The notes under the pieces: model-generated
Database searches by the model: none
The model's input: only the letters and a program-made list of their open reading frames with translations
What the model was told of the DNA's origin: nothing
Part shown: in pieces, positions 2,616-37,833 of the stretch
Layout of the letters: each line of letters opens with the position of its first letter
How positions within the stretch are numbered: the stretch's first letter is position 1
Position numbers and translations under genes: made by a program
Source of the DNA: Thiohalospira sp.
Lineage (GTDB): Bacteria > Bacteroidota > Bacteroidia > Bacteroidales > UBA12077
Length of the DNA stretch: 64,000 nt
Assembly: GCA_046538755.1 (NCBI GenBank)
Contig: JBKHIH010000007.1
Location: 16,760 to 80,759, forward strand
Direction of reading: 5' to 3'

Positions 2616-4163
2616 ATGATGCGGTTTAAATATTTTAAATGGTATTTAGTAGTTTTCTTTATAGTGCTTTTAACAACAGATTGTAATGCGCAAACTGTTA
2701 AAAGCGATAAAAATCAGCAGGAGTGTATCGACAGAGAGCCTGTAGTTGCAGGGTCTTTTTATCCGGATAACCCCGAATCGTTAAAAATGATGTTAGAATC
2801 ACTTTTCGCACGCAGCGAAACCGTTAAAACCTACAATGATGTTTTAGCCATTATTTCACCACATGCTGGTTATCCGTATTCGGGAAAAGTAGCTGCTTCG
2901 GCTTTTAACCAAATCGACACGGAAAAAAGCTATGAAAATATATTTATATTGGCCTCGAGCCACAGAGTAATATTTAACGGAGCCTCCATTTATAATGTTG
3001 GCGATTATATTACTCCGTTGGGAAAAGTAAAAGTAAACCGCAAACTGGCAAACGAGCTAATCGAACAACATAAAATTTTTGTTTATCATCCCGATGCCCA
3101 CAAAGCTGAACATAGCCTTGAAGTCCAATTGCCGTTTTTACAATATAAAATGACTAAGGATTTTAAAATTGTGCCGATTGTAACTGGTACGCAAAACATG
3201 AATGATTGTAAAAAAATTGCTGCTGCCTTAAAACCGTATTTTAATGAAAATAATTTATTTGTCATAAGTACCGATTTCTCACATTATCCGGCTTATAATG
3301 ATGCAATAAAAGTGGACAAAAAAACCGGAGATGCTATTTTGGCCAATTCGGTAAACAGAGTAATTGATGCAATCAGTGAAAATGAATCGGCACACATTGA
3401 AAACCTGGCTACAAGTATGTGCGGATGGCCTGCTGTGATTTCACTATTATATATTACGCAGGATATGCCAGATGTTAATATTATTCATGTCGATTATCAG
3501 AATTCTGGCGATGAAACCCGCGATAAAAGCCGCGTGGTTGGATATCATGCCATTGCATTTGAAAGAATAAAAACAAAAAATATGTCTGAAAATCATTTTA
3601 AACTTACCGATGAAGAAAAGCTTAAGCTATTGGAAATAGCCCGAATTACAATTAATGAATACCTGGAATCTGGAAAAATGCCGGATATAGATGCAGAAAA
3701 GATAACACCCGAAATGCGGGAGCACTGTGGAGCTTTTGTAACATTACATTTAGAAGGAGCATTGCGTGGTTGTATCGGAAGGTTTTCGGCCAACGAGCCT
3801 TTGTATGAAATTGTTCAGAAAATGGCTGTTGCTGCTGCCACTGAAGACCACAGGTTCTCTCCAGTACAGCCCGAAGAAATGAATAAAATTGACCTTGAAA
3901 TTTCCGTATTAACACCAATGAAGAAGATTAAATCGATTGATGAAATTGAAATGGGCAGGCATGGAATTTATATTAAAAAAGGATTCGCAACCGGAACATT
4001 TTTACCTCAGGTAGCCCAAGAAACCGGTTGGGCTAAAGAAGAGTTTTTAGGATACTGTTCAAGAAATAAAGCCGGATTGGGATGGGATGGATGGAAAGAT
4101 GCCGATATTTTTGTATACGAGGCGCTTGTTTTTGGTGAAAAAGAATTTAAAAAAGACAATTAA
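2616..4163 (+). CDS. amrB: AmmeMemoRadiSam protein B (Memo-like) fused to protein A (AMMECR1-like), with an N-terminal signal peptide
   Basis: Memo motifs REPVVAGSFYP, SPHAGY, EHSLEVQLPFLQ, STDFSHY, SMCG; AMMECR1 motifs GAFVTL, LRGCIG, LPQVA; hydrophobic N-terminus ending CNA|Q. Confidence 0.9.
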   Translation: MMRFKYFKWYLVVFFIVLLTTDCNAQTVKSDKNQQECIDREPVVAGSFYPDNPESLKMMLESLFARSETVKTYNDVLAIISPHAGYPYSGKVAASAFNQIDTEKSYENIFILASSHRVIFNGASIYNVGDYITPLGKVKVNRKLANELIEQHKIFVYHPDAHKAEHSLEVQLPFLQYKMTKDFKIVPIVTGTQNMNDCKKIAAALKPYFNENNLFVISTDFSHYPAYNDAIKVDKKTGDAILANSVNRVIDAISENESAHIENLATSMCGWPAVISLLYITQDMPDVNIIHVDYQNSGDETRDKSRVVGYHAIAFERIKTKNMSENHFKLTDEEKLKLLEIARITINEYLESGKMPDIDAEKITPEMREHCGAFVTLHLEGALRGCIGRFSANEPLYEIVQKMAVAAATEDHRFSPVQPEEMNKIDLEISVLTPMKKIKSIDEIEMGRHGIYIKKGFATGTFLPQVAQETGWAKEEFLGYCSRNKAGLGWDGWKDADIFVYEALVFGEKEFKKDN

Positions 4164-35131: not shown

Positions 35132-35560
35132 GTGGAGAATAACGATGTTTTAAAGATAATAGATGAGGTTTCGGAAGTACTTTCTTTGTTGCTTGAGTTA
35201 AAGAAAAAAGGAAGATTTCGCGAAGCGTTGGAAAAAATAGACAAAACTCTTTTGGAATATTTCCACCTGGATTCTGATTTTGTATACTCTGTTTCCGAAG
35301 ATTTTTTTATTGATGCATTGAAACAGGAAAAAAAATTAACCTCTGAGCAGTTATCGACATTAGCCGAATTGTTAAGCGAACATGGTGATATTCTATTAGA
35401 ACAAAATAATTTAAAGCAAAGCCAAAAAGTATTAAAAAATACCCTTAAAATATATTACTTTCTTAATGATGACCAGGATTTTTTCTCTTTTAAAAATATG
35501 AATAAGATGGTACTTATCAACGAAAAATTGTCTAAAATTAATGTTGAAATAAAAAGTTAG
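35132..35560 (+). CDS. Hypothetical helical (TPR-like, DUF6483-like) protein
   Basis: 142-aa acidic all-alpha pattern ending YYFLNDDQDFFSF; GTG start. Family assignment tentative. Confidence 0.55.
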   Translation: MENNDVLKIIDEVSEVLSLLLELKKKGRFREALEKIDKTLLEYFHLDSDFVYSVSEDFFIDALKQEKKLTSEQLSTLAELLSEHGDILLEQNNLKQSQKVLKNTLKIYYFLNDDQDFFSFKNMNKMVLINEKLSKINVEIKS

Positions 35561-35611
35561 CCAGCAGGATAACTGTAGGTTGGATATGAAATTAATAAAA
35601 ACAAAAAAATA

Positions 35612-35642
35612 TTTGATTTTTAAAACAAAATGTTTATAATTG
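35612..35642 (+). promoter_or_regulatory. Putative promoter driving the hairpin RNA and NYN gene
   Basis: TTTG (35612-35615), 19-nt spacer, TATAATTG (35635-35642; one mismatch to TAnnTTTG). Confidence 0.5.
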
Positions 35643-35660
35643 CGTTTAAATACATATAAT

Positions 35661-35724
35661 GCTCTTGGCAACGTATTCTCAATTCTTTATAAAATAGCGA
35701 GAATGCCGAACCTAGGGCTTTTTT
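35661..35724 (+). ncRNA. Candidate antitoxin/cis-regulatory RNA: two-stem hairpin with a U-tract upstream of the NYN nuclease
   Basis: Outer stem GCTCTTGG/CCTAGGGC, 4x4 internal loop CAAC/CGAA, inner stem GTATTCTC/GAGAATGC, then T6 ending 12 nt before the ATG. Confidence 0.55.
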
Positions 35725-35736
35725 ATTTTAATAAAC

Positions 35737-36411
35737 ATGAAAAAGAAAACAGCAATTCTAGTAGACGGTGGTTTTTTCCTGAAAAGATATCGTTCAATAC
35801 ATAAGATTAAAAAACTTGATCCAGTTCGAACCGCATCCGATTTGTGGGAAATGTGTTTAAAGCATTTGGCACAAGCAAAAGGCGAATCATTTGATTTATA
35901 CAGAATTTTCTATTATGATTGCTTGCCGTATGAAAAAAAACAGCATAATCCAATAACGGGTAAAGCTATTGATTTTTCTAAAACAGAACAAAATAAATTT
36001 CAGTCTGAGTTTTTTAGTGAACTTAAGAAAAAAAGAAAAGTAGCTCTAAGATTAGGAATTCTAGAAGACAGAAATCGATGGATTATTAAACCATCAAAAA
36101 CTAAAGACTTACTTGCAAAGAAAATTCAAATTGATGATTTGACAGATGAAGATGTTTTTTTCGACTTTAGTCAAAAAATGGTTGATATAAAGATAGGATT
36201 AGATATTGCTTCAATCACATTAAAAAGGCAAGTTGAACAGATAATTTTAATTTCAGGAGATAGTGATTTTGTCCCAGCAGCTAAATTAGCAAGAAGAGAA
36301 GGAATAGATTTTTTACTTGATCCTATGTGGAATCCAATAAAACCTCACTTATTTGAACACATTGATGGGTTAGTTTCAAAAATCAAGAAACCCCTTAACC
36401 ACGCTGGTTAA
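35737..36411 (+). CDS. NYN domain (LabA/DUF88, PIN-like) ribonuclease
   Basis: AILVDGGF, RIFYYDC, QKMVDIKIGLD and ISGDSDFVPA; the acidic catalytic residues appear intact. Confidence 0.9.
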   Translation: MKKKTAILVDGGFFLKRYRSIHKIKKLDPVRTASDLWEMCLKHLAQAKGESFDLYRIFYYDCLPYEKKQHNPITGKAIDFSKTEQNKFQSEFFSELKKKRKVALRLGILEDRNRWIIKPSKTKDLLAKKIQIDDLTDEDVFFDFSQKMVDIKIGLDIASITLKRQVEQIILISGDSDFVPAAKLARREGIDFLLDPMWNPIKPHLFEHIDGLVSKIKKPLNHAG

Positions 36412-36495
36412 CTTTCGTATATTACAAAATATTTTTCAAATAACTACCAACTATTTTTCAGTACATTACCTTATTGAAATTCTTGAAAATAGGGT

Positions 36496-37833
36496 CTATT
36501 TTTTTGTTATTCGTTGTCTTAATTTTTCTGTTTCCTTTTCAAATCCGGGTTTCCCAAGTAACGCAAACATATTTTTCTTATAAGCCTCTACGCCGGGCTG
36601 GTCGAAAGGATTAATATCCAGTAAGTAACCACTAATAGCACACGATTTTTCAAAAAAATAGAGTAGTTGTCCAATAAACTGCTCGTTAAGTTTAGGAATC
36701 GTTATTCTGATATTGGGAACTCCTCCATCAACATGAGCTAATGTAGTTCCTTTTTCGGCCATTTTATTAATAAAATCCAGAGGTTTCTTTGCAAGGTAAT
36801 TGAGTTTATCAAAATTTTCTTTATCAGTTGGAATTTCCAATTGATAATTTGTTTCATCAATTGATATTACCGTTTCAAAAATATTTCTAAGCCCTTCCTG
36901 GATATATTGTCCCAATGAATGCAGGTCTGTTGTAAAACTTACGCTAGCTGGAAAAATGCCTTTATGCTCTTTCCCTTCGCTTTCGCCAAATAATTGTTTC
37001 CACCATTCTGCTAAAAAGTTAAGGCGTAAATCGTAATTGGCAAGAATCTCAATGTATTTTTCTTTTTTGTATAGTAAATGGCGAATAGCAGCGTATTGGT
37101 AAACCGGATTCTTTTCAAAAGTTTCTAAACTTATTTCAAGCATTCTTTTAGCTCCCGAAATAAGCTCTTCAATATTAAAACCAGCACAAGCAATGGGCAA
37201 AAGGCCTACGGGAGTTAAAACAGAATACCGTCCACCAACATCATCGGCAATGGTAAACGTTTTGTAACCCTCTTGATTTGCCAGGGTTCTTAAAGCTCCT
37301 TTTTCAGCATCGGTGATGGCTACAATTCTTTTTTGGGTTTCTTCCTTACCTGCTTTTTCTTCCAGTTCTTTTCTTAAAAGTCTAAAGGAAATGGCCGGTT
37401 CGGTTGTTGTTCCCGACTTGGAAATGACAATCACTGAAAAAGTTTTTTCTTTTAGATATTTTATCAACTCATAATGATAATCTTCCGATAAATTATGTCC
37501 GGCAAAAATAATTTCAGGTGTATTGGTATTTTTGTTAAAGTGCCCTGAAAGCGCTTTTATAACAGCTTTTGCTCCAAGGTAAGAACCTCCGATACCTATT
37601 ACTACAATTACATCCGATATTTTTTTTAAATCTGCTGCGGTATTTTTTATATCATCAATTTCTGTTTGAGAAATAATTTTTGGTAGGTCTAACCAGCCCA
37701 GGAAATCCCTTCCTTTGCCGGTTTTATTATTTAACATTTGCACTTTTTCTTCGATAAGTGCTTTATAAGCATTAAATTCTTTCTGTTGAATAAATGGCAA
37801 ACAATTACTTAGGTCTAATTGAATATTTTTCAT
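36496..37833 (-). CDS. pgi: Glucose-6-phosphate isomerase
   Basis: IGIGGSYLG, SKSGTTTE, VGGRYSVLT, QLFGESEGK, FDQPGVEAYK. Confidence 0.96.
   Translation of the reverse strand: MKNIQLDLSNCLPFIQQKEFNAYKALIEEKVQMLNNKTGKGRDFLGWLDLPKIISQTEIDDIKNTAADLKKISDVIVVIGIGGSYLGAKAVIKALSGHFNKNTNTPEIIFAGHNLSEDYHYELIKYLKEKTFSVIVISKSGTTTEPAISFRLLRKELEEKAGKEETQKRIVAITDAEKGALRTLANQEGYKTFTIADDVGGRYSVLTPVGLLPIACAGFNIEELISGAKRMLEISLETFEKNPVYQYAAIRHLLYKKEKYIEILANYDLRLNFLAEWWKQLFGESEGKEHKGIFPASVSFTTDLHSLGQYIQEGLRNIFETVISIDETNYQLEIPTDKENFDKLNYLAKKPLDFINKMAEKGTTLAHVDGGVPNIRITIPKLNEQFIGQLLYFFEKSCAISGYLLDINPFDQPGVEAYKKNMFALLGKPGFEKETEKLRQRITKK

Follow-up and report, generated by a model that had tools for sequence, protein, structure and literature searches.

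Type III toxin-antitoxin (TA) systems, as set out by Fineran in 2009 and Blower in 2012, reportedly consist of one promoter, a structured RNA, an intrinsic terminator and an endoribonuclease gene, and are said to be carried by plasmids and phages. A similar layout is present in the window, by which we mean the whole 64,000-nucleotide (nt) stretch of DNA analysed here (Thiohalospira sp., GTDB Bacteroidales; UBA12077; assembly GCA_046538755.1, contig JBKHIH010000007.1, positions 16,760-80,759 of the forward strand), where a hairpin RNA lies directly upstream of a gene for a NYN nuclease. An earlier note on this DNA had likened the locus to type III TA and AbiF systems in its order of promoter, structured RNA, terminator and ribonuclease (RNase) gene, and this likeness was borne out.

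The closest experimental precedent for the mechanism proposed below comes from a C. difficile prophage, in which the toxic protein AbiF (Abi_2) is preceded by the structured non-coding RNA (ncRNA) RCd22, and restraint by this RNA was shown experimentally in cis as well as in trans (PMC12373285). The window shares with RCd22/AbiF a structured ncRNA placed before a nuclease gene, but AbiF has a HEPN-like Abi_2 fold rather than a NYN fold, RCd22 carries two abiF motifs and the RNAs are unrelated; no Abi_2 match was obtained for the window protein with Pfam or PADLOC, and no Rfam match in its leader. The solved or characterised NYN proteins (the B. fragilis NYN, VPA0982/2QIP and HEC-09) have the NYN/LabA-like fold and the conserved acidic active site in common with the protein of the window, but none has been described with an upstream RNA partner, and full-text searches found no literature linking NYN genes to an upstream RNA.

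Compared with the type III systems ToxIN, CptIN and TenpIN, the window has the same single promoter, structured RNA, terminator and RNase gene and no protein antitoxin, a layout that would place the RNA in excess over the toxin messenger RNA (mRNA). The promoter box stands before the lower stem of the hairpin (P1), and P1 with its run of six T residues (T6) ends 12 nt before the ATG. The putative toxin, however, is NYN/PIN-like and does not belong to the ToxN/AbiQ, CptN or TenpN families (Pfam, Foldseek), and whereas the type III toxin cuts its antitoxin out of tandemly arrayed 34-36-nt repeats, the window RNA is a single hairpin whose ends are set by transcription start and terminator; Tandem Repeats Finder and a second repeat finder detected no tandem repeats at 35600-35736. 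The module is type III-like in layout and differs from that class in toxin family and in having no repeat array. Its features are as follows.

35612-35615, + strand: -33 promoter element TTTG, read directly
35635-35642, + strand: -7 promoter box TATAATTG, 19-nt spacer after TTTG, one mismatch to the Bacteroidota TAnnTTTG
35651-35726, + strand: structured RNA motif, full match to covariance model R1 (90.4 bits, E 3.5e-20)
35661-35718, + strand: hairpin overall
35661-35668, + strand: 5' strand of the lower stem P1, GCTCTTGG, from the fold
35669-35672, + strand: 5' side of the internal loop, CAAC (consensus C-N-A-M, alignments A1 and A3)
35673-35680, + strand: 5' strand of the upper stem P2, GTATTCTC
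35681-35698, + strand: 18-nt apical loop with a near-invariant AUAG at its end, otherwise of variable length and sequence
35699-35706, + strand: 3' strand of P2, GAGAATGC, pairing with GTATTCTC
35707-35710, + strand: 3' side of the internal loop, CGAA (consensus C-N-A-M)
35711-35718, + strand: 3' strand of P1, CCTAGGGC, pairing with GCTCTTGG
35719-35724, + strand: U-tract T6, with P1 an intrinsic-terminator-like element
Between T6 and the NYN start codon (ATG at 35737): 12-nt spacer
35737-36411, + strand: intact NYN/LabA-like nuclease gene, 224 amino acids (Pfam, alignment, AlphaFold2)

All coordinates that the earlier note had given for the promoter, the two-stem hairpin, the 4x4 CAAC/CGAA loop, T6, the 12-nt gap and the intact NYN gene hold. 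Its description of the stems as containing G-U pairs needs one addition: the stems are there, but P1 combines one G-U pair with a U.U mismatch that went unmentioned, at a position that is unpaired in 45 of 63 homologues. The minimum-free-energy and centroid folds are the same single hairpin. Folded alone, the window sequence reaches -16.9 kcal/mol (z = -2.06), and 9 of 200 shuffled sequences fold equally well; because the fold is only modestly better than shuffles, the reality of the hairpin rests on the comparison with related loci.

For this comparison, a scan of one genome per species gave 70 loci with NYN relatives 46-98% identical to that of the window, spanning many Bacteroidota orders plus Bacillota, Gammaproteobacteria, Planctomycetota and Acidobacteriota. 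By eye, almost all of them carry this hairpin and a T-run, usually 4-25 nt before the start codon. The covariance model R1 (76 positions, 16 pairs) matches 66 of the 70 loci, each time on the coding strand immediately upstream of NYN, and the motif is missing only at contig ends (L041, L048, L051) or replaced by a divergent variant (L056, L072). In the window the model scores about 90 bits on the + strand and 21 bits on the - strand. It found one match per locus and no second copy of the RNA in 459 kb, and the RNA is also single-copy in the window's genome by BLAST and covariance model. Across 63 sequences, 92.7% of cells are paired (96.8% in P2) and 12 of the 16 pairs have changes on both sides, with compensatory changes in six of the eight P1 pairs and six of the eight P2 pairs; none of 500 shuffles attained any of the observed measures, and slid controls were 32-58% paired. 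The expectation of the earlier note, that homologous NYN genes would be preceded by the motif with a conserved internal loop and covarying stems, was confirmed by these counts.

Conservation extends to parts of the RNA that are not paired, namely 5' GG-C-N-A-M-G, 3' UGCC-N-A-M-CC, the apical AUAG (in which A44 and T45 are invariant in alignment A1) and the U.U mismatch of P1; the T-run is at least 90% conserved in the 63 homologues. Within Bacteroidota the hairpin is 86% identical, compared with ~75% for the nucleotides of the open-reading frame (ORF), where synonymous divergence (dS) is saturated, indicating selection on the RNA sequence and not merely on the shape of a terminator. Between loci the hairpin changes length by steps other than multiples of three, which marks the region as non-coding. 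By this comparison, the hairpin is a structured RNA that has been conserved in association with the NYN family. Rfam 15 gave no match for the window RNA at the gathering threshold and none at E<10. Two other uses of the hairpin were considered and rejected: a conserved AUG within P2 (GAGAAUGCC) as an alternative start, which is out of frame in the window and is GUG or GAG elsewhere, and base pairing between the apical loop and either the 5' flank or the start region of NYN, for which inspection by eye gave only trivial AU-rich matches and none in the short-loop Firmicutes RNAs.

The internal loop comes in two types. In Firmicutes, staphylococcal, Burkholderia-phage and Campylobacter-plasmid relatives, the ancestral type, it reads GG-C-AGUA-N-G / GCC-GA(A/C)-CC, and this AGUA-type loop, to go by its letters, is a bulged-G (sarcin-ricin-type) module. 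In the Bacteroidota, window included, the G-U is lost and the loop is a pseudo-symmetric 4x4 C-N-A-M / C-N-A-M. Loops of the 4x4 and bulged-G kinds are typical platforms for protein recognition, and by analogy the loop may contact NYN. The apical loop is 5-7 nt long in Firmicutes-type RNAs and elsewhere AU-rich and of low complexity.

Among 57 related Bacteroidota loci, 46 have an exact TAnnTTTG whose end lies 9-20 nt (mode 11) upstream of P1, 50 have the box with at most one mismatch, and in 31 the -7 box is preceded by a TTTG at a distance of 17-22 nt; the box is kept before P1 although the DNA farther upstream is unrelated. Sigma-70-type boxes occupy the equivalent place in the Firmicutes, Burkholderia-phage, E. 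coli-phage and Salinisphaera relatives. With the box just before P1, the RNA would be a primary transcript starting a few nt 5' of the stem, predicted to begin only ~4-14 nt before P1 and to run for ~72-76 nt, from roughly 35648-35652 to the U-tract. A distance of 9-20 nt is too short to accommodate an antiterminator or a promoter of NYN's own, so that NYN mRNA would be made only by read-through of P1 and the U-tract. In the Firmicutes loci the Shine-Dalgarno sequence lies outside the hairpin, which points to control at termination and not at ribosome access. At L027 (2851-2994), ~140 nt flanked by an 11-bp direct duplication (ATATGAAACGA) separate the RNA terminator from the NYN start and look like a small mobile insertion uncoupling NYN from its RNA; an unrelated 80-nt spacer occupies the same place in L039.

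The protein of the window matches the Pfam NYN family PF01936 (E 5.6e-8; 33.8 bits, cut-off 24.2), with no NCBIfam match, and keeps all of the conserved acidic residues (D10, D61, D150, D156, D175, D177, D191 and D195), five of which (D10, D61, D150, D156 and D177) are invariant across the 33 sequences of alignment A4. Its AlphaFold2 model is NYN/LabA-like, with a predicted local distance difference test score (pLDDT) of 87.6, and the top Foldseek match and sole significant PDB neighbour is 2QIP (probability 1.0), a LabA-like protein of unknown function; no sequence match to a PDB chain was detectable. The protein therefore combines a PF01936 score above cut-off, a PIN-like Rossmannoid fold and the acidic metal-binding residues. 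The most conserved segment is the C-terminal tail, residues 194-212, LDPMWNPIKPxLxEHIDGL (LDPMWNPIKPHLFEHIDGL), which is near-identical across phyla with E207, H208 and D210 invariant, and which is also the sole segment predicted to be disordered in the AlphaFold2 monomer (pLDDT <50 at residues 200-210). Going by the model, this tail probably becomes ordered on a partner. Among Bacteroidota, NYN has a ratio of nonsynonymous to synonymous divergence (dN/dS) of ~0.03-0.04 with dS saturated, so the similarity reflects long-term purifying selection and not recent transfer. A B. fragilis CRISPR-associated NYN is a robust, non-specific, Mn-dependent single-strand RNase (PMC11346440), and from this analogy an unrestrained NYN would plausibly be harmful. 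The family is large, with 208 clusters (50% identity) at E<1e-30 and 1043 at E<1e-10, and the window protein matches PHROG 5783 (E 2.7e-86), whose function is unknown.

The earlier note had described a self-contained unit between unrelated genes, without a protein antitoxin gene, and both statements stand. The surroundings of the module are given below.

35132-35560, + strand: ORF142, a core gene of 142 amino acids
35561-36495, between the stop codons of the convergent ORF142 and pgi: the insert, 934 bp, consisting of the RNA-NYN module and short flanks
36496-37833, - strand: pgi, convergent core gene

In blastn alignments with 10 genomes of the same genus that have no NYN, the ORF142 and pgi stop codons are ~4-17 bp apart, and direct reading of L078 gives 5 nt between them. 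ORF142 is present in 36 of the 37 genomes of the genus and NYN in two. The DNA common to unrelated genomes is limited to 35654-36392, that is, to the RNA and the ORF; in the closest relatives it extends to the promoter as well. The RNA-NYN module is a self-contained, horizontally mobile 934-bp insert, and the clean empty-site comparison among congeners is an addition of the present analysis. An all-against-all comparison of flanking ORFs at 69 loci gave no conserved neighbour of NYN; therefore, there is no protein antitoxin or operon partner. A conserved protein partner or small antitoxin ORF was rejected because homology between genomes ends at the 5' end of the RNA and at the NYN stop codon, and ORF142 was rejected as a component because it is a core gene of the genus. 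Terminal inverted repeats were also discarded: the candidate pair I8 (35553-35565 / 36403-36415) is not kept in the sister genome L006 and probably arose by chance.

The module is rare in Bacteroidia: in an even sample of 150 genomes, the RNA motif occurred once and a distant NYN homologue once. Homologues of the protein that are 40-54% identical were found in 65 phage records and 166 plasmid records. In the lambdoid E. coli phage ev099 the gene lies between a cI-like repressor and N, a slot which we take to be the position of rexAB in lambda; in the P2-like Burkholderia phage phiE202 it adjoins the integrase and a toxin-antitoxin pair; and in Campylobacter it is carried on conjugative pTet plasmids. 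A variant hairpin stands upstream of NYN in all three cases, with a U-run in both phage loci. BLAST found no Firmicutes-type RNA in phage records, and the listed E. coli strains, among which there is no well-studied laboratory strain, have no ncRNA annotation at the phage version of the module. For the Bacteroidota-type RNA in viral contigs, a 14-mer scan gave no covariance-model match among the 80 listed of 120 stretches, a strict 24-base pattern gave no match, and a protein scan gave one distant viral NYN locus.

Loss of NYN with retention of the RNA is frequent. The NYN gene is disrupted in 13 of the 70 loci, the remainder of each sequence being highly conserved, and the 12 disrupted loci that have upstream sequence all retain the RNA, at 57-88 bits. 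The disruptions are stop codons in L006 (TAG at codon 60; 1147-1818 in the sister genome of the window), L014 (codon 59; 3001-3672 in a Lunatimonas lonarensis isolate), L046, L048 and L058, frameshifts in L059, L060, L064 and L071 (the last also without an ATG), and truncations or deletions in L069, L070, L073 and L074. In L006 and L014, independent nonsense mutations have struck two neighbouring Tyr codons, 59 and 60, which immediately precede the invariant D61; both loci keep the RNA and the remainder of the gene intact. One RNA of the Bacteroidota type (54 bits) occurs without any NYN gene: in genome G061, whose genus comprises two genomes, it lies at L092:1500-1583 on the minus strand, with an aspartate kinase gene on one side and a HigB/HigA-like toxin-antitoxin pair on the other. 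The frequent NYN knock-outs with the RNA kept, together with the prophage immunity and cargo slots, give indirect support to the possibility that NYN is costly or toxic.

The nearest catalogued RNA is Teg147 of S. aureus (Rfam RF03535, TEG147; gathering threshold 56.1 bits). The TEG147 model matches Clostridia members of the NYN-family RNA full-length at 29-34 bits, and R1 in turn aligns in register over the full length of S. aureus TEG147, at ~21 bits (E ~0.01); the TEG147 model has no match at threshold in the window or the whole genome, and none at E<10 in the window. Both RNAs have a lower helix of 8-9 bp, an internal loop rich in purines, an upper helix, AUA within the apical loop, a U-tract and a position directly upstream of NYN, the homologous NYN beside TEG147 being 47-48% identical to that of the window. 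The window RNA differs in its longer apical loop and in its 4x4 C-N-A-M / C-N-A-M loop, which does not have the AGUA/GAA module that JAR3D predicts to be bulged-G (sarcin-ricin-like) for TEG147 (PMC13085918). Judging from these reciprocal matches, the window RNA is a distant relative of TEG147, below Rfam membership.

A metagenome scan with the TEG147 core gave 25 contigs, of which six were checked and score 84-89 bits. Five of the 25 contigs carry a NYN ORF, 47-48% identical to that of the window, ~25 nt after the U-tract (one frameshifted, one cut by the contig end). The other 20 are of S. aureus type, with sau-63 2.1 kb upstream as in strain NCTC 8325, and have only a decayed 5' NYN remnant, in contrast to the intact gene of the window. 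Teg147 (sRNA85 / srn_0960) is an expressed 56-60-nt bona fide small RNA of HG003, encoded on a genomic island, and is catalogued as a small RNA only, with no function or NYN link given (PMC5826253, PMC3053349). Since NYN has decayed beside the expressed Teg147, Teg147 is the orphan RNA of a lost NYN gene, and by analogy its expression is indirect evidence that RNAs of this class accumulate as short terminated transcripts. One staphylococcal-type contig (L219:5540-5700, minus strand) is intermediate between intact and decayed NYN: the Shine-Dalgarno sequence and ATGGAAAAAGTAGCC start are intact, the catalytic VDGG has become IYGE and the gene is truncated.

Given conserved parts beyond what a terminator needs, an RNA and an enzyme that travel together and an RNA forced into excess, the best reading is that the RNA restrains NYN by built-in termination and direct binding, as in type III TA; we hold it tentatively, giving it not quite an even chance. 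One promoter would drive a structured RNA of ~72 nt in which P1 and the U-run act as an intrinsic terminator, so that most transcripts would end as free small RNA and read-through alone would yield NYN mRNA. The internal loop and P2 would form the site at which RNA and NYN recognise each other, and this recognition would keep the nuclease scarce, inactive or both. The RNA would be a type III-like antitoxin, possibly acting in cis (by stronger termination) and in trans (by sequestering the protein), as RCd22 does on AbiF. A drop in RNA supply, through phage transcription shut-off or loss of the element, would free NYN to degrade cellular RNA and stop growth. Termination in vivo, RNA-protein binding, toxicity and the trigger are steps that we infer.

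Several results weigh against restraint of a toxin by this RNA. The RNA invariably stands in cis to the gene and in the same orientation, as would be equally expected of a leader acting purely in cis, and it is a single hairpin with no processed repeat array. The excess of broken NYN over broken RNA does not exceed that predicted from the ~10-fold difference in target size, and a dN/dS of ~0.03 at saturated dS resembles that of housekeeping genes more than that of genes in an arms race. The defence-system check with PADLOC, suggested in the earlier note, brought nothing firmer than weak partial matches: PADLOC-DB v2 has no full-length significant defence match for the window NYN, only NYN PDLC01154 (E 9e-5 over 41 residues) and HEC-09 (E 2e-4 over 46 residues). 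HEC-09, a NYN candidate that is a different protein, gave no defence against the phages tested (bioRxiv 10.1101/2024.01.29.577857). Finally, the Bacteroidota clade was not found in viral contigs by pattern and protein scans.

If the RNA does restrain NYN, the module would be a type III-like RNA-antitoxin system whose toxin fold (NYN/PIN-like) and antitoxin design are both new, a single hairpin being its own terminator, and it would account for Teg147, an orphan small RNA of S. aureus that has been in the catalogues since 2010 with no function assigned. The known families of structured RNAs would gain a widespread member not yet catalogued, next to a large NYN family found in defence or cargo positions such as the cI-N slot, the integrase of a P2-like phage and conjugative Campylobacter plasmids. 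The window itself contributes the Bacteroidota loop variant, the pseudogene tally and Teg147 as a NYN-module orphan, and at ~800 bp the self-contained module is easily tested.

The strongest competitor, possible but clearly less probable than restraint by binding, is a leader or attenuator acting purely in cis, an alternative that the earlier note had also named, in which a terminator in the 5' untranslated region holds NYN low, either constitutively or with a strength tuned by NYN binding the nascent leader, and the short RNA is an inert by-product. Autogenous control of termination has a precedent in ribosomal protein L4 acting on the S10 leader. The constant upstream, co-oriented position of the RNA, usually 4-25 nt from the start codon, fits such a leader, as do the single RNA copy per locus without tandem arrays anywhere in the clade and the Rfam type 'Cis-reg' given to the distant relative TEG147. 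A terminator, however, needs no 4x4 loop, near-invariant P2, AUAG or U.U mismatch conserved across phyla, and at L027 and L039 the RNA and NYN are 80-150 nt apart. Nor does a by-product account for orphan RNAs that persist with promoter and terminator after NYN loss, of which that of S. aureus is expressed (PMC5826253).

Two further readings are both improbable. In one, the RNA is a required cofactor, scaffold or substrate mimic that gives a NYN ribonucleoprotein its specificity or activity, and is not an inhibitor. The strict pairing of RNA and enzyme, the apparent co-evolution of the RNA with the protein across clades, the conserved yet predicted-disordered C-terminal tail and the variable apical loop of the Bacteroidota RNAs would suit such a role. 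That loop is an unlikely guide, however, at 5-7 nt in the Firmicutes type or with an AU-rich, low-complexity sequence; a terminator that starves the enzyme gene of transcripts would be odd for an obligate cofactor, and orphan RNAs survive without the enzyme. In the other, to which we assign a similarly small chance, the RNA would be a decoy mimicking the cellular target of NYN, and NYN a ribosome-inactivating nuclease with an antitoxin that mimics ribosomal RNA. The AGUA/GAC loop letters of the ancestral-type relatives are those of the 23S ribosomal RNA sarcin-ricin loop, and the PIN-domain toxins VapC20 and VapC26 cut that loop in 23S. For the Bacteroidota clade the decoy is weakened by the window-type loop, which is without the G-U of the motif; if it held, it would define a new and very widespread class of RNA antitoxin on phages, plasmids and chromosomes.

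A riboswitch-like leader, whose internal loop would sense a small molecule or cellular factor and switch NYN, is very unlikely. A conserved internal loop embedded in a terminator stem would be in keeping with it, and terminator-embedded aptamers exist, for example the HMP-PP/thiS riboswitch. But with a transcript that starts ~4-14 nt before P1 no antiterminator pairing is possible, the leader has no exclusive terminator/antiterminator pair of the kind seen in riboswitches and classical attenuators, and the RNA accompanies a single gene family on phages and plasmids across phyla, with no metabolic regulon and no Rfam match. The remaining possibility is that the hairpin arose by chance, terminates the upstream gene or belongs to a dispersed repeat or miniature inverted-repeat transposable element. 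It would fit the z-score of only -2.06 and the position ~100 nt downstream of ORF142, but is refuted and carries virtually no weight, as NYN-less congeners have ORF142 and pgi stop-to-stop with no hairpin after ORF142, and the hairpin moves together with NYN, has one copy in the genome by BLAST and covariance model and shows strong covariation.

Some minor features of the surroundings were also recorded. ORF142, always convergent with pgi, has no Pfam, NCBIfam or convincing PADLOC match. Directly after the NYN stop, at 36413-36470, lies a degenerate 22-nt tandem repeat (2.7 copies, 71% matches), inside the 934-bp insert and outside the DNA common to other genomes. The NYN stop of an Oscillospiraceae metagenome-assembled genome is followed, ~130 nt downstream, by a skipping-rope RNA (L065:3884-3964; RF02924, 68 bits, E 2.5e-14).

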